Of a stretch of DNA of 41,227 nucleotides, positions 3,190 to 35,792 are shown piece after piece. The position numbers and the translations under genes are program-made. This DNA is from a virus (lineage: Duplodnaviria; Heunggongvirae; Uroviricota; Caudoviricetes): the IMG/VR virus record IMGVR_UViG_2713896799_000015, positions 1 through 41,227 of that record, one strand, 5' to 3'. Position 1 is the first letter of the stretch. Each line of letters opens with the position of its first letter. The notes under the pieces were generated by a model, which saw only the letters and a list, made by a program, of their open reading frames with translations, ran no database searches and was not told where the DNA came from.

Positions 3190-3204
3190 TTACCCTATAG
3201 GTGA
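3190..3204. promoter_or_regulatory. Operator-like site TTACC-CTATA-GGTGA (imperfect) upstream of acyltransferase gene
   Basis: Matches the TTACC-N5-GGTAA family with one mismatch in the right half; 37 bp upstream of the 3241 start. Confidence 0.4.
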
Positions 3205-7443: not shown

Positions 7444-7547
7444 GTTAAATCTCCAGATAGTCGCAGCACCCGTTGCGCCGCATATCTGGTTATTCTATTA
7501 CCTGAAAAACCATATATGGATAGAAAGGCTGTAAATACGAATAGATA

Positions 7548-7562
7548 TTACCTTTCAGGTAA
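7548..7562. promoter_or_regulatory. Operator TTACCTTTCAGGTAA (perfect)
   Basis: 15-bp palindrome; the 16-mer ATTACCTTTCAGGTAA is identical to the copy at 25375-25390. Confidence 0.6.
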
Positions 7563-7599: not shown

Positions 7600-7619
7600 T
7601 ACTGTATAAATATACAGTT
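7600..7619. promoter_or_regulatory. LexA (SOS) box
   Basis: TACTGTATAAATATACAGTT matches consensus TACTGTATATATATACAGTA at 18 of 20 positions; 20 bp upstream of the 7640 ATG. Confidence 0.75.
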
Positions 7620-7639
7620 ATTGCATGGAGAAGATTAAG

Positions 7640-7897
7640 ATGCAGCAGTATCACTATCCACTGGAAGACGGATTTACCGAAAGGATTCACACGCCGGGAG
7701 GCGTCAGGTCACTGGTGGAGGGATCGCACTTGATGAAATTACTCCGGGATCTCGATAAGGATGGATTTAATGTCGATGGCCCACTTGCCGAACTGACTGC
7801 ACTGATTAACTACGTCACCAGCTCACAGATGTCTATGCGGGATCTGCAAACACATCTCGACTATTGTGCCGAACAATTACGAAAACAAACCCGGTAA
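7640..7897 (+). CDS. Small antirepressor-like protein (stand-alone homolog of Ant C-terminal domain)
   Basis: GGAG 9 nt upstream of ATG; aligns with the last ~85 residues of the 312-aa Ant (shared YxYPL, IHxPxGV, LMKLL, DG, AELT, RDxQTH). Confidence 0.55.
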   Translation: MQQYHYPLEDGFTERIHTPGGVRSLVEGSHLMKLLRDLDKDGFNVDGPLAELTALINYVTSSQMSMRDLQTHLDYCAEQLRKQTR

Positions 7898-7921: not shown

Positions 7922-7933
7922 GTGACATGTCAC
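7922..7933. repeat. Palindrome GTGACATGTCAC, copy 1 of 3
   Basis: Perfect 12-bp palindrome 1 nt from the hairpin; same 12-mer at 26364 and 28628. Confidence 0.7.
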
Positions 7934-7971: not shown

Positions 7972-8910
7972 TCAGAAGAACCCTGCCTTGTCGTTGATGT
8001 ATTCCGCGTGCGTCTGGATATCACGCAGGCATTTGCTCACACCGACGATGTAGCAGAACATGGTGGTCAGCTCCGCCGCCGCGCCCGATACATCGTGCCC
8101 GTCTTCCTGTAACTGGTTCAGCAGTTTCATCAGCAGTGAGTTCTCCGTCAGGCCGAGAACACCCGACGGCGAATGAATCAGACTGCGGTAGCCTGGCTTC
8201 AATGGATAACCATAACATTTTGTCTGTGTTTTAATTGCCTCACGAAGCGCATCTAACATCTTGACTGCCACTTCATCATTCTCTGATGCAGATCCAGCAG
8301 GGAGATACTCCCCTTCAAGCGGAACCCGAGCAACAAGAGACAACGCTTCGGCAAATTGATCTTCACCAATTTCTTTGTACGAACAGCCAAAATGAGATTT
8401 CAGTGACGACCACATGGTGATCATCGCCTTAGCCTGTTTTTCTTTTGGCAGAGACTGACCGCGACTCATGACGAGTTGTTTAATGGCTTCCTGCTGTTCA
8501 GTTGTTATTTTACCCGGCAACGCCTTTTTAGCTTTGCGTGGGTTAACCACATGGCCTTTAGTCCAGTACTCGTAGAGCACATCGTCACACTCTTCCTGAT
8601 ACTGGATTACCTTGTCGCGGATTTCAGGGCGGACTTTGTTAGGGCTGATGCTGTTCAACCAAGCTGCCAATTTTCGTAAAGCCATACAAATCATGGCTTG
8701 CACCCCACCGGCAGAAGGTATGGTGATTTCCACCATACCCTTCGAGAAGCGTTGAGAAATCTTCTTATGTTGAGATTTCCAGTCTAGCCCCATTCCCTCA
8801 ACGATAGGTTTCATTGGGGTATACGGTTCGCCGTTGTGATTGACAACATAAAGCTCTGCGCCGTGGAATGGCACGTTGATAGTAGATACTGCTGTTGCTA
8901 TACTCGTCAT
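7972..8910 (-). CDS. Antirepressor Ant
   Basis: 312 aa, directly downstream of an Arc-like gene as in P22 immI; C-terminal domain shared with the small LexA-linked gene. Confidence 0.65.
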   Translation of the reverse strand: MTSIATAVSTINVPFHGAELYVVNHNGEPYTPMKPIVEGMGLDWKSQHKKISQRFSKGMVEITIPSAGGVQAMICMALRKLAAWLNSISPNKVRPEIRDKVIQYQEECDDVLYEYWTKGHVVNPRKAKKALPGKITTEQQEAIKQLVMSRGQSLPKEKQAKAMITMWSSLKSHFGCSYKEIGEDQFAEALSLVARVPLEGEYLPAGSASENDEVAVKMLDALREAIKTQTKCYGYPLKPGYRSLIHSPSGVLGLTENSLLMKLLNQLQEDGHDVSGAAAELTTMFCYIVGVSKCLRDIQTHAEYINDKAGFF

Positions 8911-8958
8911 GTCGTTAATTCCTATACGTAGTTTTACGATACTGAAGCCCTGACGGTC

Positions 8959-8973
8959 TGGCCACCGTGGGGC
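8959..8973. promoter_or_regulatory. Mnt/Arc-type operator-like site (core CCACCGTGGGGC)
   Basis: Shares 12 bp with the 9165-9179 palindrome; lies between arc and ant. Confidence 0.4.
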
Positions 8974-8982
8974 TTCGCTGTT

Positions 8983-9150
8983 TTATGCCACGCTATTCTT
9001 CTCACCAGTGAGTCCATACACTTTCCTCAGCTGATAGATAATCTCTGTATTGAACTTTCGGCATTCTTTTTCGCCATTTCTTTCAATAGCTAACTTCACA
9101 TCGTCCGGAAAACGAACTCGTCGTTGACACATCTCTTTTGCTTTTTGCAT
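8983..9150 (-). CDS. Arc-like ribbon-helix-helix repressor
   Basis: 55 aa from ATG at 9150 with AAGGAG RBS; RVRFPDDVKLAIERNGEKECRKFNTEIIYQL resembles the P22 Arc fold signature. Confidence 0.55.
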   Translation of the reverse strand: MQKAKEMCQRRVRFPDDVKLAIERNGEKECRKFNTEIIYQLRKVYGLTGEKNSVA

Positions 9151-9164
9151 TTCATATCTCCTTA

Positions 9165-9179
9165 GCCCCACCGTGGGGC
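9165..9179. promoter_or_regulatory. Perfect 15-bp palindrome GCCCCACCGTGGGGC (Mnt-operator-like)
   Basis: In the divergent arc/mnt control region; central CACCGTG recalls the P22 Omnt core (from memory). Confidence 0.5.
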
Positions 9180-9270
9180 AAAATAATTGTCACACCGTGC
9201 GTCATTGATGTCAAGCACACGGTGAGGCATACTTCAATCATTGCAAGTAACTCAATATTTGGTGAAGAAC

Positions 9271-9702
9271 ATGAGCAGAGAAGATCCACAACTAAGGATC
9301 AGACTTCCCGTCGAAGTAAAAGAAAAAATAGAAATTTCTGCAAAAGCCAATAAGCGATCAATGAACGCTGAAATAGTACAACGTCTTGACACCAGCTTTC
9401 TGAAAGATATTCATGAAGATGACGTAATTTCTGCTTATGAAGCAAAAATCATTGCAAACAATGCACGACATGAAATATCAAATATTATTTTCAAAAGAAC
9501 CTTTAATGAAATTAATAAGAAAATAACACTTGGACATACAAGTTTTTATATAAACCTTAATGACCTTGAACTGGAATCACTTGCAGATAATGATTACCAG
9601 ATCATCTTTGAAAAAACATTTAATAAGCTCAATGAACTAGGTTACATCATCTGTGAAAACTCATGGGATGCAGATGGTTTTGGAATTGAAATACCTGAAT
9701 AG
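9271..9702 (+). CDS. Mnt-like RHH repressor with ~70-aa AT-rich C-terminal extension
   Basis: N-terminus MSREDPQLRIRLPVEVKEKIEISAKANKRSMNAEIVQRL parallels P22 Mnt; protein is 143 aa versus 82 for Mnt. Confidence 0.5.
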   Translation: MSREDPQLRIRLPVEVKEKIEISAKANKRSMNAEIVQRLDTSFLKDIHEDDVISAYEAKIIANNARHEISNIIFKRTFNEINKKITLGHTSFYINLNDLELESLADNDYQIIFEKTFNKLNELGYIICENSWDADGFGIEIPE

Positions 9703-23095: not shown

Positions 23096-23388
23096 TCCTG
23101 TTCACTGGCCTCTTTGGCCATCTTCAAATACTGTTCAGGGCAATGCGCCATAACGCGCTGAAACAGTTCCAGCGCCAGATTGCGTTGCCCCTCATTAAAT
23201 GCCATTGCCATAGCGTCCATCGGTGAGATAGCGGAAAACACACGGCCTTTCTCCAGCACCGACCAGACAACGCGACGCCCATGTTCACTGCTCATGACAA
23301 AGCGAATGTCATCAATTTCACGCTGTGCCATGTCACGTTGCTTACGGGCGTTTTCTTCTTTCAGTTGATCGTCTTCGTAATCTGTCAT
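23092..23388 (-). CDS. Hypothetical small protein between portal and scaffold
   Basis: 98 aa, 4-nt overlaps at both ends. Confidence 0.35.
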   Translation of the reverse strand: MTDYEDDQLKEENARKQRDMAQREIDDIRFVMSSEHGRRVVWSVLEKGRVFSAISPMDAMAMAFNEGQRNLALELFQRVMAHCPEQYLKMAKEASEQE

Positions 23389-25353: not shown

Positions 25354-25390
25354 TTGACATTTAACGCGTGAATTATTACCTTTCAGGTAA
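25354..25390 (+). promoter_or_regulatory. Promoter-like TTGACA plus operator TTACCTTTCAGGTAA (25376-25390)
   Basis: TTGACA at 25354-25359; perfect operator copy begins 17 bp later, upstream of the tRNA unit. Confidence 0.45.
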
Positions 25391-25712: not shown

Positions 25713-25789
25713 GTGGCATTAGCTCAGTCGGACAGAGCAACCGCCTTCTAAGCGGTTGGTCGCAGGTTCGAATCCTGCATGCCACGCCA
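25713..25789 (+). tRNA. tRNA-Arg (anticodon UCU)
   Basis: 77-nt cloverleaf: acceptor GTGGCAT/ATGCCAC, anticodon stem ACCGC/GCGGT, loop CTTCTAA, T-arm GCAGG-TTCGAAT-CCTGC, encoded CCA. Confidence 0.85.
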
Positions 25790-25876: not shown

Positions 25877-25952
25877 AGCAGGACGCCATTGCGATGACTT
25901 CATGCTGTAAACCCGTACAGCCACGGAAGGCATAACTCATTGCTTCCAGTTC

Positions 25953-25987: not shown

Positions 25988-26359
25988 ATGAACGACAAGC
26001 AAATCGAAAAAGAAATCGTTGAGAAAGGCAAAACGGCACCGCGCGTTACGCCAGACCATATCGAAGGAATTATTGCTCAGGAGGCATATTTCACAGCAGA
26101 AGATGGTGCCTTTGGCAAAGCCATAAAAGCGAAACATACTGGCGGAGAGGTAAACTACCAGCCGCACGAATCACTTTCTCTGCTGACGTTCTGCGTCCTG
26201 GTGCTGCGCAACGGCTTCACCGTCACCGGAGAGAGCGCCTGTGCAAGCCCGGAAAACTTTGATGCAGAAATTGGTCGGAAGATTGCCCGGCAGAATGCTG
26301 TAAACAAAATCTGGATGCTCGAAGGTTACTTGCTGAAGCAGAAGCTAAGCGAGCAATAA
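25988..26359 (+). CDS. Small phage protein, possibly Gp49/Sf6-gp66-like family
   Basis: 123 aa, AAGGTGAG RBS; family call is from recalled motif resemblance only. Confidence 0.4.
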   Translation: MNDKQIEKEIVEKGKTAPRVTPDHIEGIIAQEAYFTAEDGAFGKAIKAKHTGGEVNYQPHESLSLLTFCVLVLRNGFTVTGESACASPENFDAEIGRKIARQNAVNKIWMLEGYLLKQKLSEQ

Positions 26360-26363
26360 CACC

Positions 26364-26375
26364 GTGACATGTCAC
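26364..26375. repeat. Palindrome GTGACATGTCAC, copy 2 of 3
   Basis: Perfect 12-mer 5 nt upstream of the 26381-26406 terminator. Confidence 0.7.
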
Positions 26376-27925: not shown

Positions 27926-28518
27926 TGATTACCATCCTGACGTTCTTTGAGTCGCTTCCTGGCTGCCGCTATGCGATCAGCAATTGTCACATTCACATTA
28001 ACATCCAGGCGTTCTTTGAACGCGTTGACGTCGACGTGCTTACCAATCAGTTCGAGGTTCTTCACCTTGTCAGGCCATTTAATTTTTTTGAGGATTGTCT
28101 CTATCGAATCCTCGTTCATGTTCATGATGGTCGATGACAGATCAAAGCCACTAAGCGTAGTGCGCCAGATTTTCGGCCACTCGCGGATTGGCTTAAGGCT
28201 CCCATCGTCGTTGAGGATGTCGATCACGTCCATCTGGTCGATCTCCACCAGGCGCATGAGAACGTAATCAGCACTGACGCGCATTCGTTTGTTGCGCTCC
28301 TCCATCAACTCGGCAATCCGTTTTTGAATGCGTTCATCGCGCATCATGACACTGGCTTTAACTGCCGCTGTATTTGGGGAGAATCCTGCGTTAATCGCTG
28401 CCTGAGTCTGGTTTTCAGGCGTTTTGATGTATGACTGGCAATAAGCCTCCTGCATTGCTGTTAGTGGCTTAAATTGCGTTGATTTGCGTTTATAGGTTTT
28501 AGGTTCAGCAGGCATCAT
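27922..28518 (-). CDS. Terminase small subunit
   Basis: Start taken at MMPAEPK (28518); the longer ORF's N-terminal extension lies over a DNA repeat region and is unlikely to be translated. Confidence 0.55.
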   Translation of the reverse strand: MMPAEPKTYKRKSTQFKPLTAMQEAYCQSYIKTPENQTQAAINAGFSPNTAAVKASVMMRDERIQKRIAELMEERNKRMRVSADYVLMRLVEIDQMDVIDILNDDGSLKPIREWPKIWRTTLSGFDLSSTIMNMNEDSIETILKKIKWPDKVKNLELIGKHVDVNAFKERLDVNVNVTIADRIAAARKRLKERQDGNQ

Positions 28519-28560
28519 AACCACCGTGGTAATAGTTACCGTTGTGGTAATAGTACCATG

Positions 28561-28627: not shown

Positions 28628-28639
28628 GTGACATGTCAC
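28628..28639. repeat. Palindrome GTGACATGTCAC, copy 3 of 3
   Basis: Perfect 12-mer overlapping the stop of the 28636-28977 gene, 41 nt upstream (minus sense) of the terminator. Confidence 0.7.
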
Positions 28640-32610: not shown

Positions 32611-32688
32611 TTACCCCTTAGGTAATTAAAAACCACATAAGACATGAAATCAATAGAAATTAGAACATTTTATTACCTACAAGGTAAT
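32611..32688. promoter_or_regulatory. Two perfect operators (TTACCCCTTAGGTAA 32611-32625; TTACCTACAAGGTAA 32674-32688)
   Basis: First copy starts 4 bp from the ATG of the 32607 gene and covers its RBS; both lie in a 117-bp gap between same-strand genes. Confidence 0.55.
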
Positions 32689-32724: not shown

Positions 32725-33525
32725 TTACTTGATAAATCCTGCCGCCTTTCCCCGCCTGTATTCCTCCATCAGCCACTGCGCCGGTGTTATTCCCCCAAGG
32801 GTGGCGGCGTTAGGCATGCACCCGAAACTTCGCCCTGGTGGATGGTAAACGTCTCTCCCTGTGTCCGGAGGTGTACTCATGGGCTCTGGCTTTGCCTGTA
32901 TGCTGATCACCGGATCGGGTATCTGCTGTCCGGAAGCCACCTTTTTCGCCCAATCATCGAGCAGCCTGCGCGCGTGTTTCTCAACCTCAATCTCGCTAAG
33001 CTGGCGCTGATACATTGCACGGCGGGTATCACATACGACCCAGTACATAACCGGATGTCGCCACGGGAATCTTTCGGGACCACCAGGATATAAACTTTTT
33101 TCCTTGCTGTACCGATGAAACTCCGCCATCACATCGTCAATGGTGACGCCAAGAACCATCTTGCTGTCTTTACACCACTTGATGAATTGCCCTGGCGACG
33201 GCCAGAACGGAGATTCACTGGCGCGGGCGTGGCGCATACCAGCAGAAACCTGTTCACGGGTTCGGATCCCACTTTCAGCAAACGCAGCAATCCACTGCTG
33301 TTTTGCAGCGACTTCCTGCTCTGGCGTCTTCAGGTTGGTTACCACTGCCGCCGGAAACAGTTGTTTCAGCTGTTTAAAAAGGGCATCAACAAGCCTCTCT
33401 GCTGACATGTTCACCACATTGTCATTGTTGACGTACTGATGCTCATAACCTGACATGCGAGAAAGGGCTTCTCCGTCACGGTTTTGTATCGCGGTAAAAA
33501 CGTTGTTCACAAGAAATCCTCCCAT
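32725..33525 (-). CDS. Replication protein, lambda P-like (helicase loader candidate)
   Basis: Follows the initiator gene with overlap; family call by recollection. Confidence 0.45.
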   Translation of the reverse strand: MGGFLVNNVFTAIQNRDGEALSRMSGYEHQYVNNDNVVNMSAERLVDALFKQLKQLFPAAVVTNLKTPEQEVAAKQQWIAAFAESGIRTREQVSAGMRHARASESPFWPSPGQFIKWCKDSKMVLGVTIDDVMAEFHRYSKEKSLYPGGPERFPWRHPVMYWVVCDTRRAMYQRQLSEIEVEKHARRLLDDWAKKVASGQQIPDPVISIQAKPEPMSTPPDTGRDVYHPPGRSFGCMPNAATLGGITPAQWLMEEYRRGKAAGFIK

Positions 33526-34322
33526 GCTTCAGGGCTGTTCCAGTGCGGAACGTTGTTATCAGGTAATGTTGATTGCTTCTGTCTGCTAATCTGCAGCCGC
33601 CTTGCCAGCTTCTGCTCCCACTGTGCCTGATGGTATGCCTTACCCTCAGCCATCCAGTAAATTCTGAACTCTGCAAGTTCCTGTGCCGTTGGCAGACTGT
33701 CCAGGTAGATCCCCTGCAATGAGCTTTTCCGAAGAAAGTCATCTGATGGCTGCCATTGTTCATGCATGACAAATTTGCCTAATTGCCCTGGCCCACCAGG
33801 AGGAACAAAGTTATTCATCACGGCGTTGTTTGCTCCGGGGTCATGAGGCACAGAATCCCCGCTTTTTGTCCTGCTCTCCCTCTCTTGGTTAAATGACTGG
33901 TTATATGACTGGTTCTGGATCCCGTTTTTGGGATCATTCAACATCCCGTTTTTGGGATCATTCAACATCCCGTTTTTGGGTATATTCCCGTTTTCGGTAA
34001 CATTACCGTTTTCGGGTTCATTACCCCCTTCCCGGTTGCCTTTAATGTTCCCGTTTTTGGTTATATTAAGAGAGAAAACCCGCACTCTTTTCGTCGCTCC
34101 CTTTCTCTCTCCGGTATCTGAAATAAGCCCCATTTTCATGAGCGATATAAGCCCGGCCTGCACGGTTTTTTTATTCAGGCAAGTGTCTTTAACGAGGCGT
34201 TCTATGCTGGGGTAGCAGAGGTTATATTCATCGGCTCTGTCAGCCATCGAGAGCAGTATGAGCTTTAATGATGAGCTACCTGGATCTGTCTCCCAGGCCC
34301 AATCTGTTGCATGTCTGCTCAT
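33507..34322 (-). CDS. Replication initiator, lambda O-like, with internal iterons
   Basis: N-terminal winged-helix-like region; central NGxLNDPK peptide repeats encoded by DNA direct repeats. Confidence 0.55.
   Translation of the reverse strand: MSRHATDWAWETDPGSSSLKLILLSMADRADEYNLCYPSIERLVKDTCLNKKTVQAGLISLMKMGLISDTGERKGATKRVRVFSLNITKNGNIKGNREGGNEPENGNVTENGNIPKNGMLNDPKNGMLNDPKNGIQNQSYNQSFNQERESRTKSGDSVPHDPGANNAVMNNFVPPGGPGQLGKFVMHEQWQPSDDFLRKSSLQGIYLDSLPTAQELAEFRIYWMAEGKAYHQAQWEQKLARRLQISRQKQSTLPDNNVPHWNSPEAWEDFL
33919..34060. repeat. Iteron array (probable origin of replication)
   Basis: ATCCCGTTTTTGGGATCATTCAAC twice in tandem (33919-33942, 33943-33966), then four degenerate CCCGTTTT(T/C)GG copies. 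Confidence 0.65.
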
Positions 34323-34538: not shown

Positions 34539-34618
34539 GGTAAGCCCTGTTATTAGTATTGGGATTACGGTTATTTTGTGCTGACACAAAAAAAAGATCA
34601 ACCATATTTGGTTTTTTA

Positions 34619-34633
34619 TTACCTTTGAGGTAC
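34619..34633. promoter_or_regulatory. Operator-like site TTACCTTTGAGGTAC (one mismatch)
   Basis: Between the cro-like gene and the next downstream gene. Confidence 0.4.
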
Positions 34634-34688
34634 GAATAGATATGAAAAGACCGCCGGATGGCGGTCTACAGAGGGTTGTGGCTGGATA

Positions 34689-34919
34689 TCATGAGTAGAA
34701 GAAGTATGCCAATTCTGCTTTTGAGCGCAGCCATTGTCTTGATTTACAGGCTTTAAAAAGCCCATCCATCAATACCTTACCTGGCATTTTGCGCTTACCT
34801 GTTAAGTGAGTCTGGATATAGTGACTCGTCGTTCCGGCTTCCTGTGCGAAGGCTTCACGCTCATCCGGAGTAAGTGCAAGCCAGTGCTTTTTGAAATCGA
34901 AATGTCCGTTATCGCTCAT
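34689..34919 (-). CDS. Cro-like HTH regulator
   Basis: 76 aa, divergent from the repressor, reads toward replication genes; a hairpin (34649-34666) follows it. Confidence 0.5.
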   Translation of the reverse strand: MSDNGHFDFKKHWLALTPDEREAFAQEAGTTSHYIQTHLTGKRKMPGKVLMDGLFKACKSRQWLRSKAELAYFFYS

Positions 34920-34955
34920 AGCTATTGCCTGATATTTATTTCAGATAATAAATAT

Positions 34956-35019
34956 TCACCTATAAGGTAACAAAAATCAAGGATAGTTACCCATGAGGTG
35001 CATTTACCTGTTGGGTAAT
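34956..35019. promoter_or_regulatory. Operator cluster (OR-like): three sites between cro-like and repressor genes
   Basis: TCACCTATAAGGTAA (34956-34970), TTACCCATGAGGTGC (34987-35001), TTACCTGTTGGGTAA (35005-35019). Confidence 0.6.
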
Positions 35020-35073
35020 ATTGCTTTAAATTGAATCATCTTCTGATTCAGATATGAGGCGATTTTCCAGAAA

Positions 35074-35658
35074 ATGAAAAGTATCCAGGACGTCCGCAGG
35101 CAAAATCTCAACGACTTGATCGACCGTGAATTCAATGGTGTTCAGACGCGGATGGCTGAAAAACTTGGAACTCAGGCAAATCTGGTAAACCGCTGGGCTC
35201 TTGGCAAGAAGGTTATCGGCGACCAGGTTGCGCGAAAAATTGAAGCTGCCGCCAATAAACCCCGTAACTGGCTTGATATCGATCGCTCGCTTTCTCAGGA
35301 AGGTTTTCAGCCTGTCGGACCAAGCGACATTGGTCAACTGGCGGCTCACAACCTGGAACGCTGGATGAGCGAAAGCCGCGACCTTTCAACGCAGGGAAAA
35401 CTTCACCGCGCATCCGGCGTCGCCCAGGTGACAATCAGCCGCCTGTTAAACAATGAGGTCAGCGTTTCCATTTCCACCCTGGAGAATGTTGCATCCGCAT
35501 TCGGGCGTCACGGCTATGAATTACTGATTCACCCGCACGACCCTGCGACTATCAACTATGACCGCTCGCGCTACGCTTTGTTACCCGAAACCGAGAAAGC
35601 AAAGATCGAAAGTTACATTGAATTTGTCATCAACCAGAACGAAAAAAACAAACAATAA
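35074..35658 (+). CDS. Prophage repressor, tandem HTH, no peptidase domain
   Basis: Two XRE-type HTH segments in 194 aa; no S24 Ser/Lys autopeptidase region; flanked by operator clusters. Confidence 0.55.
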   Translation: MKSIQDVRRQNLNDLIDREFNGVQTRMAEKLGTQANLVNRWALGKKVIGDQVARKIEAAANKPRNWLDIDRSLSQEGFQPVGPSDIGQLAAHNLERWMSESRDLSTQGKLHRASGVAQVTISRLLNNEVSVSISTLENVASAFGRHGYELLIHPHDPATINYDRSRYALLPETEKAKIESYIEFVINQNEKNKQ

Positions 35659-35678
35659 AATCATATTTTTCAGTAAGT

Positions 35679-35705
35679 AAGCCGCCTTCTGGCGGCTTTT
35701 TTATT
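35679..35705 (+). terminator. Terminator after repressor gene
   Basis: GCCGCC-TTCT-GGCGGC followed by TTTTTTATT. Confidence 0.65.
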
Positions 35706-35715
35706 GCCTGTTAGA

Positions 35716-35792
35716 TTACCTAACAGGTAATTTTTTTAACTCATATCTATTGACATCAAACCAGATACGCATAATTATTACCTCAACGGTAA
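35716..35792. promoter_or_regulatory. Operator pair (OL-like) with TTGACA promoter element between them
   Basis: TTACCTAACAGGTAA (35716-35730) and TTACCTCAACGGTAA (35778-35792); TTGACA at 35750-35755. Confidence 0.6.

Follow-up and report, generated by a model that had tools for sequence, protein, structure and literature searches.

How can a prophage leave lysogeny when its immunity region is laid out as in lambda and its repressor carries no self-cleaving domain? The question is raised by positions 34,619 to 35,792 of a 41,227-nt stretch of DNA (here called the window, i.e. the whole stretch that was analysed), which corresponds to the IMG/VR virus record IMGVR_UViG_2713896799_000015 (Caudoviricetes). 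A first-pass annotation of this region, made from the sequence, had described divergent repressor and Cro-like genes with operators between them, and had proposed that derepression relies on antirepressors. Our answer, to which we give a probability of roughly 0.9, is that the switch works like the Rep-Ant system of SPC32H, in which a non-cleavable repressor (Rep) would be taken off the DNA by an antirepressor (Ant) under LexA control. Homologies, motifs, positions and conservation were computed throughout. The cross-genome comparisons cover five Uetakevirus genomes, and the relatives named are SPC32H, epsilon15, Tyrion and BUCT711. The features are listed in Table 1.

We assign the window to a phiV10-like E. 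coli prophage (phiV10/epsilon15 type, Uetakevirus) because of its identity to phiV10, its occurrence in E. coli chromosomes and its position next to guaA. A 2-kb stretch around the immunity region is 98.4% identical at the DNA level to Escherichia phage phiV10, and several other Uetakevirus genomes match it at the same value. This stretch was found in 562 of 5426 complete E. coli genomes, where it is almost always chromosomal. In strain GF43 the element adjoins guaA, i.e. the reported attachment site of ZX5, phiV10 and epsilon15 (PMC9782041).

Rep is a full-length homologue of the SPC32H repressor. Chain 5D50_A aligns with its residues 1-190 (phmmer, E 4e-42) at about 42-45% identity, and 5D50 and 5D4Z are the top structural matches (Foldseek) of its AlphaFold2 (AF2) model, which is all-helical and consists of two domains, a disordered linker and a long C-terminal helix. 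The full-length homologues recovered are about 194 aa long (range 190-235), and those with Pfam domains on record have only domains of the helix-turn-helix (HTH) type. No S24 peptidase domain was detected in Rep by Pfam, PHROGs or NCBIfam, and neither an Ala-Gly nor a Cys-Gly dipeptide occurs anywhere in its sequence. The repressor without autopeptidase that the first-pass annotation had described is thus upheld by the family searches, by the all-helical model and by the homology to SPC32H Rep. In other words, since it lacks S24, Rep is not a member of the cI family despite the lambda-like layout of its genes. The SPC32H homologue is reportedly not cleaved.

The layout does invite a classical explanation, namely that RecA stimulates self-cleavage of Rep at a cryptic site and that the antirepressors are accessory. 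We regard this as extremely improbable. S24 is a beta fold, against which stands the all-helical model; the S24 matches and the dipeptides are both missing, and a LexA-controlled Ant is present. A cryptic protease domain was accordingly rejected on the three family searches together with the model.

Rep is 100% identical to phiV10 gp40, to ZX5 ORF21 and to the Reps of other phages, so that the experiments on ZX5 apply to the same protein. Overexpression of this repressor in ZX5 abolished free phage and lytic growth and cut the transcripts of the lysis genes by more than 99.9% (PMC9782041).

Both HTH units that had been read as a tandem were recovered by Pfam: residues 21-61 match a Cro/YdaS-type HTH (E 3e-4, under the curated cut-off) and residues 106-147 match HTH_3 (E 1.2e-9); the GenBank record of phiV10 (DQ126339) already lists two helix-turn-helix motifs for gp40. 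What probably does not carry over is a DNA-reading role for both. The second unit most likely dimerises instead of reading DNA, because the matching part of SPC32H Rep is described as a dimerisation domain: in the account that PMC9986798 gives of Kim et al. 2016, that protein consists of an N-terminal DNA-binding domain (DBD), a middle dimerisation domain (MDD) and a C-terminal domain (CAD) that tetramerises and binds Ant. PMC9638917 describes Rep on DNA as a tetramer which an Ant tetramer splits into dimers. The dimeriser role also fits the perfectly symmetric operator half-sites and residues N36, R40 and W41 of the N-terminal recognition helix, which are invariant across the family, as would be expected from half-sites that are invariant as well.

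A single-chain pseudo-dimer would be the other way to use two HTH units: each HTH of one Rep chain would read one half-site, and the monomer would be the binding unit. The two HTH-type matches within one chain speak for it, as do Q118 and R123 of the second HTH-like domain, which are also invariant. The two domains are however dissimilar in sequence, whereas the operators are true palindromes whose identical half-sites would need the same reading domain twice, and the SPC32H architecture given in the two papers, with its N-terminal DBD, its dimerising middle region and its binding as a tetramer, also disagrees. One HTH per half-site was therefore rejected on the identical half-sites and on the dimerising role described for the homologue's middle domain, and the pseudo-dimer appears very unlikely to us.

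If Rep is not cleaved, something else has to remove it, and the window holds two candidates. The small Ant matches Ant chain 5D50_E (E 1.6e-46) and is 99% identical to an unannotated protein of ZX5. The box TACTGTATAAATATACAGTT upstream of its gene departs at 2 of 20 positions from the LexA consensus. Both this box and the operator in the divergent tailspike-ant spacer are kept in SPC32H, epsilon15 and BUCT711. The large antirepressor joins a P22_AR_N domain (Pfam, E 5.7e-45) to an Ant-like C-terminal domain, i.e. its residues 231-307 match 5D50_E (E 1.4e-14) and the domain is 45% identical to small Ant. This C-terminal domain presumably retargets a P22-type Ant to Rep. Beside the gene lies a P22 immI-like control module, with a sar antisense RNA (Rfam, 44.8 bits against a gathering score of 43), an arc-like gene (phrog_228, E 1.8e-5) and a divergent mnt-like gene (Pfam Arc, E 1.2e-14). 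The Ant-like C-terminal domain is also found on Tyrion gp20 and on a Bro-N protein of ZX5 (ORF4), and overexpression of the latter, the large antirepressor of ZX5, lowered lysogeny (PMC9782041). The antirepressors on which derepression was predicted to rely can thus be named.

The window has 13 copies of the operator palindrome TTACC-N5-GGTAA with one mismatch at most, where 0.76 would be expected, and 0 of 100 shuffles reached this number; the same search in SPC32H gives 18 against 0.52. Five of the 13 matches are inside the immunity region, i.e. the cro-proximal and rep-proximal sites in the operator region between rep and cro (OR), the two sites of the second operator region (OL), which flanks the predicted promoter (PL) of the recombination and excision genes, and the site beyond the cro terminator. 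Three operators had been proposed between the two genes. Two of them belong to these matches, and we accept the middle one, with the caveat of its two mismatches, because in the alignment its columns coincide with those of perfect sites in SPC32H, epsilon15 and BUCT711. A full-text search of the literature for the operator motif gave no match.

The promoters and terminators follow the same plan. The PR-like promoter of cro was found by the consensus scan alone. The predicted PL agrees with the consensus at 10 of 12 positions, its TATTGAC is invariant in the five genomes, and the two OL operators bracket it with their starts 62 bp apart, as had been proposed for the TTGACA element of the rightward operon. 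The strong terminator proposed after rep folds at -21.1 kcal/mol (z -6.2), and the phiV10 GenBank record lists the hairpins after rep and after cro as putative (rho-independent) terminators. The lambda-like layout of divergent rep and cro, OR and OL was thereby confirmed, with the features at or within a few bases of where the first-pass annotation had placed them. We also note that the upstream OL operator sits in a longer inverted repeat, with 12-bp arms followed by seven T (35703-35731), which the scan calls terminator-like and which may be a back-up terminator for rep.

The Cro-like protein has no Pfam match. It matches phrog_35 'transcriptional repressor' (E 8.7e-13) and is 79% identical to SPC32H_042, which has the same position in SPC32H. 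Its AF2 model is a five-helix bundle (pLDDT, the model's own confidence score, 87) whose neighbours are the DNA-binding domains of YdaS-NTD, 434 repressor and P22 c2, with TM scores of about 0.55-0.65 and weak E-values. The label is thus reasonable by position and modelled fold, and the function is putative.

The following course of events can be proposed. Tetramer binding and the action of Ant are carried over from papers on the homologue; operator occupancy, the promoter assignments and the role of the hairpin after cro we infer. The N-terminal HTH domain of Rep would bind the TTACC-N5-GGTAA palindromes, while the middle HTH_3-like domain and the C-terminal segment would make a dimer of dimers, so that one tetramer could hold two operators at once. 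Likely pairs are the OR sites, 17 and 31 bp apart, and the sites bracketing PL, 62 bp apart. Bound in this way, Rep would shut PR (cro and the replication genes) and PL, and probably also the promoters of the other transcription units that bear operators, and would itself presumably be made from a weak promoter beside the rep-proximal operators. As Rep lacks the S24 autopeptidase, RecA would not inactivate it directly. Instead, DNA damage would take LexA off the box before ant, 27 kb away, and the 85-aa Ant would bind the C-terminal region of Rep, break the tetramer and release the DNA. The large antirepressor, with its Ant-like domain on a P22-Ant N-terminal domain and its Arc/Mnt/sar-type control, may provide a second route, itself without a LexA box. 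Cro, as a putative HTH protein, would then presumably occupy the same operators as Rep. The hairpin after cro would end or attenuate the cro transcript, and the genes downstream would be reached by read-through or from a conserved promoter-like block.

Several points weigh against this reading. The details of the SPC32H mechanism come from secondary descriptions, and the experimental data on this element are those of the ZX5 overexpression alone. The cognate pairing of Rep and Ant is putative: identity to the SPC32H protein is no more than about 42-45% for Rep, against a far stronger match for Ant. In this immunity type the middle operator of OR is degenerate. Finally, the consensus scan gave no convincing sigma-70 promoter for rep; TTACCT-17-TAAATT, from outside the scan output, is a weak candidate.

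If the Rep-Ant reading is correct, a prophage type carried by roughly one in ten complete E. coli genomes would be induced via LexA-controlled antirepressors and not by repressor cleavage, which is relevant for predicting which stresses mobilise these O-antigen-modifying prophages.

The hairpin after cro had been likened to a tR1-type terminator. Its terminator-like character stands (stem 34648-34667, 8 bp with 6 GC pairs, four-T tail TTTTCATAT; -15.3 kcal/mol, z -3.0), and its tR1 role is unproven. A GC-rich hairpin is kept at this position in all five genomes; the T-tract, on the other hand, is seen in the phiV10 and Tyrion types only and is absent in SPC32H, epsilon15 and BUCT711. Downstream, a site with one degenerate half-site occupies the position of the operator-like site 34619-34633 also in Tyrion, SPC32H, epsilon15 and BUCT711. 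It is followed by a block which across the genomes reads as a CCAWATATGG palindrome and then TTGATC-N16/17-(C/A)AAAAT; here TTGATCTTTTTT and AAAAT are invariant in all five aligned genomes. The TTGATC holds a GATC Dam site. Just two CCATATWTGG palindromes occur in the window, the one after cro (within 34573-34611) and one in the ant-tailspike spacer (7510-7519). The block is a putative promoter on the strength of its sequence. As the first-pass annotation had remarked, no N-like antiterminator is obvious: family searches among the early genes, where uncharacterised small proteins are present, recognised neither an N-like nor a Q-like protein. Because an invariant promoter-like block comes after the hairpin, N-type antitermination may not be needed there.

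These observations allow a different view of the hairpin, i.e. that it marks an N-independent operon boundary, at which the cro transcript stops, instead of a regulated tR1. Transcription of the 66-aa gene and the replication genes would then start from a separate promoter, TTGATC-17-CAAAAT, under the control of the neighbouring operator and, perhaps, of a factor that binds CCAAATATGG. We give this somewhat less than even odds. It would account for the invariance of TTGATCTTTTTT and AAAAT where the T-tract of the hairpin varies among diverged genomes, and it agrees with the lack of a recognised N-like or Q-like protein. The order terminator, operator, promoter moreover recurs at OL and after the P-like gene, where a cassette repeats the OL sequence of elements (terminator, operator, 27 nt from the operator centre to the -35, 17-nt spacer, -10, operator). 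On the other hand, only 4 of the 6 positions of the -10 hexamer after cro match and the promoter is missing from the output of the consensus scan, while the operator is 25 nt from the -35 as against 27 nt in the other modules and has no downstream partner. The conservation could equally be explained by a PRE-like plus-strand promoter that the scan did report, CTGACA-16-CATATT at 34581-34608, which is inseparable from the minus-strand alternative.

The operators are not confined to the immunity region. Their half-sites are identical in the five genomes, whereas the Reps fall into four groups that are 42-100% identical to the Rep of the window. Common to these genomes are operators at OL and OR, downstream of cro and of the P-like replication gene, upstream of terS and of the head genes, in the spacer between ant and tailspike, and close to the lysis genes; an operator before int is also common to them, at a place beyond the coverage of the window. 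The spacings are fixed as well, namely 18 bp between the terS sites, 17 and 30/31 bp between those of OR, and 62 bp both at OL and behind the P-like gene. This conserved set is not new, since the GenBank record of epsilon15 already marks seven corresponding positions as repressor-binding; the three OR sites are unmarked there. Experimental tests of the sites predicted in epsilon15 were not found in the literature. A further match at 2948-2962, with one mismatch and within a coding open reading frame (ORF), was rejected as a probable chance match.

It is tempting to regard Rep as a genome-wide master repressor and not as a two-promoter switch. About eight operator-bearing units (terS, head genes, tailspike/ant, lysis region, PL, PR, post-cro and post-P-like gene) would be guarded, and Rep-gated re-initiation after cro may replace N-type antitermination. 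We offer this tentatively, as it seems rather unlikely at present. The fixed cassette in which the palindrome often occurs, with its 62-bp operator pair, may, in the master-repressor reading, be sized for one Rep tetramer.

By hand count, G+C makes up about 30-40% of the central 5 bp of the perfect operators in genomes of the phiV10 and Tyrion types versus about 4-16% in SPC32H, epsilon15 and BUCT711. Spacer composition could be an indirect-readout determinant of immunity specificity, which we consider because the half-sites are identical. If heteroimmunity exists, it would have to come from spacer composition or from Rep-Ant pairing, since the half-sites are invariant across Reps that are 42% identical.

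How far the system agrees with known ones can now be stated. Every testable feature of the SPC32H type (PDB 5D4Z, 5D50; Kim & Ryu 2013, Kim et al. 2016) was found, i.e. Rep homology along the full length, no S24, a small and closely matching Ant, a LexA box before ant, and the gene order, with the tail genes on one side of ant and the tailspike gene on the other, and with divergent rep and cro. Operator half-sites, positions and the 17, 30/31 and 62-bp spacings are shared too. The differences are the Rep identity of about 42-45%, the less A/T-rich operator spacers, two OL sites here against three in SPC32H, the T-tract of the post-cro hairpin, and the P22 immI-like module and large hybrid antirepressor, both of which SPC32H lacks. 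In the phiV10 gp40/gp41 region (DQ126339) and around ZX5 ORF21 there is essentially no difference inside the immunity region; the flanking accessory genes differ, phiV10 having a recET fusion annotation and another antirepressor.

Lambda (cI/Cro/OR/OL) shares with the window the divergent repressor and cro genes, a tripartite, i.e. multipartite, OR, a second operator set (OL) that guards the recombination/int operon, and a terminator at the tR1 position. Unlike lambda, the window has a repressor without the S24 autocleavage domain and with another oligomerisation architecture, no recognisable N/nut or Q, and operators also at late-gene units. The Gifsy prophages and Tum of coliphage 186 resemble it in that, according to PMC3121763, a non-cleavable repressor is inactivated by a small LexA-repressed protein; the protein families are unrelated. 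As regards P22 immI (mnt-arc-sar-ant), its P22_AR_N domain, upstream Arc-like gene, divergent Mnt-like gene with an Arc domain and sar RNA all have counterparts here, while the C-terminal domain of the antirepressor is like SPC32H Ant instead, and the Mnt-like protein has 153 aa.

It follows that the immunity system is already known, from the phiV10 and epsilon15 annotations, the SPC32H genetics and structures and the ZX5 overexpression, which the first-pass annotation had not recognised. Mechanism, structures and annotation exist for close relatives, and therefore no new biology is added here.

Table 1. Immunity region, antirepressor genes and further operators, with positions in the window.
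Feature	Position	Strand	Details
Operator-like site between lysis and O-antigen-modification genes	3190-3204		1 mismatch
Operator in divergent tailspike-ant spacer	7548-7562		perfect; annotated as repressor site in epsilon15
LexA box	7600-7619		TACTGTATAAATATACAGTT; directly upstream of ant; ends 20 nt before ATG 7640
Small antirepressor gene ant	7640-7897	+	85 aa from ATG 7640; ORF opens at 7625; 27 kb from rep
Large antirepressor gene	7972-8910	-	312 aa; P22_AR_N domain fused to SPC32H-Ant-like C-terminal domain; convergent with ant
P22 immI-like control module	8912-9702		sar antisense RNA 8912-8979 (+); arc-like gene 8983-9171 (-); divergent mnt-like gene 9241-9702 (+)
Operator before head-gene cluster	25376-25390		annotated as repressor site in epsilon15
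Two tandem operators before likely terS start	28518-28550		18 bp apart; annotated as repressor site in epsilon15
Second two-operator promoter cassette, after P-like gene	32611-32687	-	terminator, operator 32673-32687, TTGATT-17-TTTAAT, operator 32611-32625; 62-bp spacing
Conserved post-cro block	34573-34611	-	CCAAATATGG palindrome, then promoter-like TTGATC (34601-34596)-17-CAAAAT (34578-34573); faces 66-aa gene and replication genes
Operator-like site beyond cro terminator	34619-34633		TTACCTTTGAGGTAC; 1 mismatch
Terminator-like hairpin after cro	34640-34667	-	AGACCGCC-ATCC-GGCGGTCT + TTTTCATAT
cro-like gene	34689-34919	-	76 aa; divergent from rep
PR-like promoter of cro	34945-34973	-	TTGTTA-17-TATTAT; overlapped by cro-proximal operator; consensus scan alone
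cro-proximal operator	34956-34970		TCACCTATAAGGTAA; 1 mismatch
Middle operator	34987-35001		TTACCCATGAGGTGC; 2 mismatches
rep-proximal operator	35004-35018		TTACCTGTTGGGTAA; perfect; 17 bp from middle operator
Repressor gene rep	35074-35658	+	194 aa; HTH DNA-binding domain at the N-terminus, HTH_3-like domain in the middle, helix at the C-terminus; S24 absent
rep intrinsic terminator	35679-35706	+	stem 35679-35698: 8 bp, 6 GC pairs; TTTTTTATT tail
Upstream OL operator	35716-35730		perfect
PL-like promoter, recombination/excision operon	35750-35778	+	TTGACA 35750-35755, 17-nt spacer, AATTAT 35773-35778; 10/12 consensus matches
Downstream OL operator	35778-35792		perfect; overlaps -10 hexamer and +1

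A few other features of the window were recorded. A CTGT-N8-ACAG box (25905-25920) lies upstream of a gene of the gp49/Sf6-gp66 family (25988-26359); it was not counted as a LexA site on account of its G/C-rich centre. The terminase and head genes are separated by a plus-strand insert that holds a tRNA-Arg(TCT) gene (25713-25789). Tandem iterons at 33919-34025, with a 24-bp unit ATCCCGTTTTTGGGATCATTCAAC repeated 2.6 times and then related 18-bp units repeated 3.1 times, lie within the DnaT-like/HTH_36 replication gene (33507-34322, minus strand), and the array looks like a lambda-style origin inside the initiator gene. Finally, the perfect 12-bp palindrome GTGACATGTCAC is found at 7922-7933, 26364-26375 and 28628-28639, and with one mismatch at 23325-23336, i.e. 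four times in the window at one mismatch or less versus 0.11 expected. SPC32H, epsilon15, Tyrion and BUCT711 have two to three copies in matching locations, downstream of ant, downstream of terL and upstream of terS.

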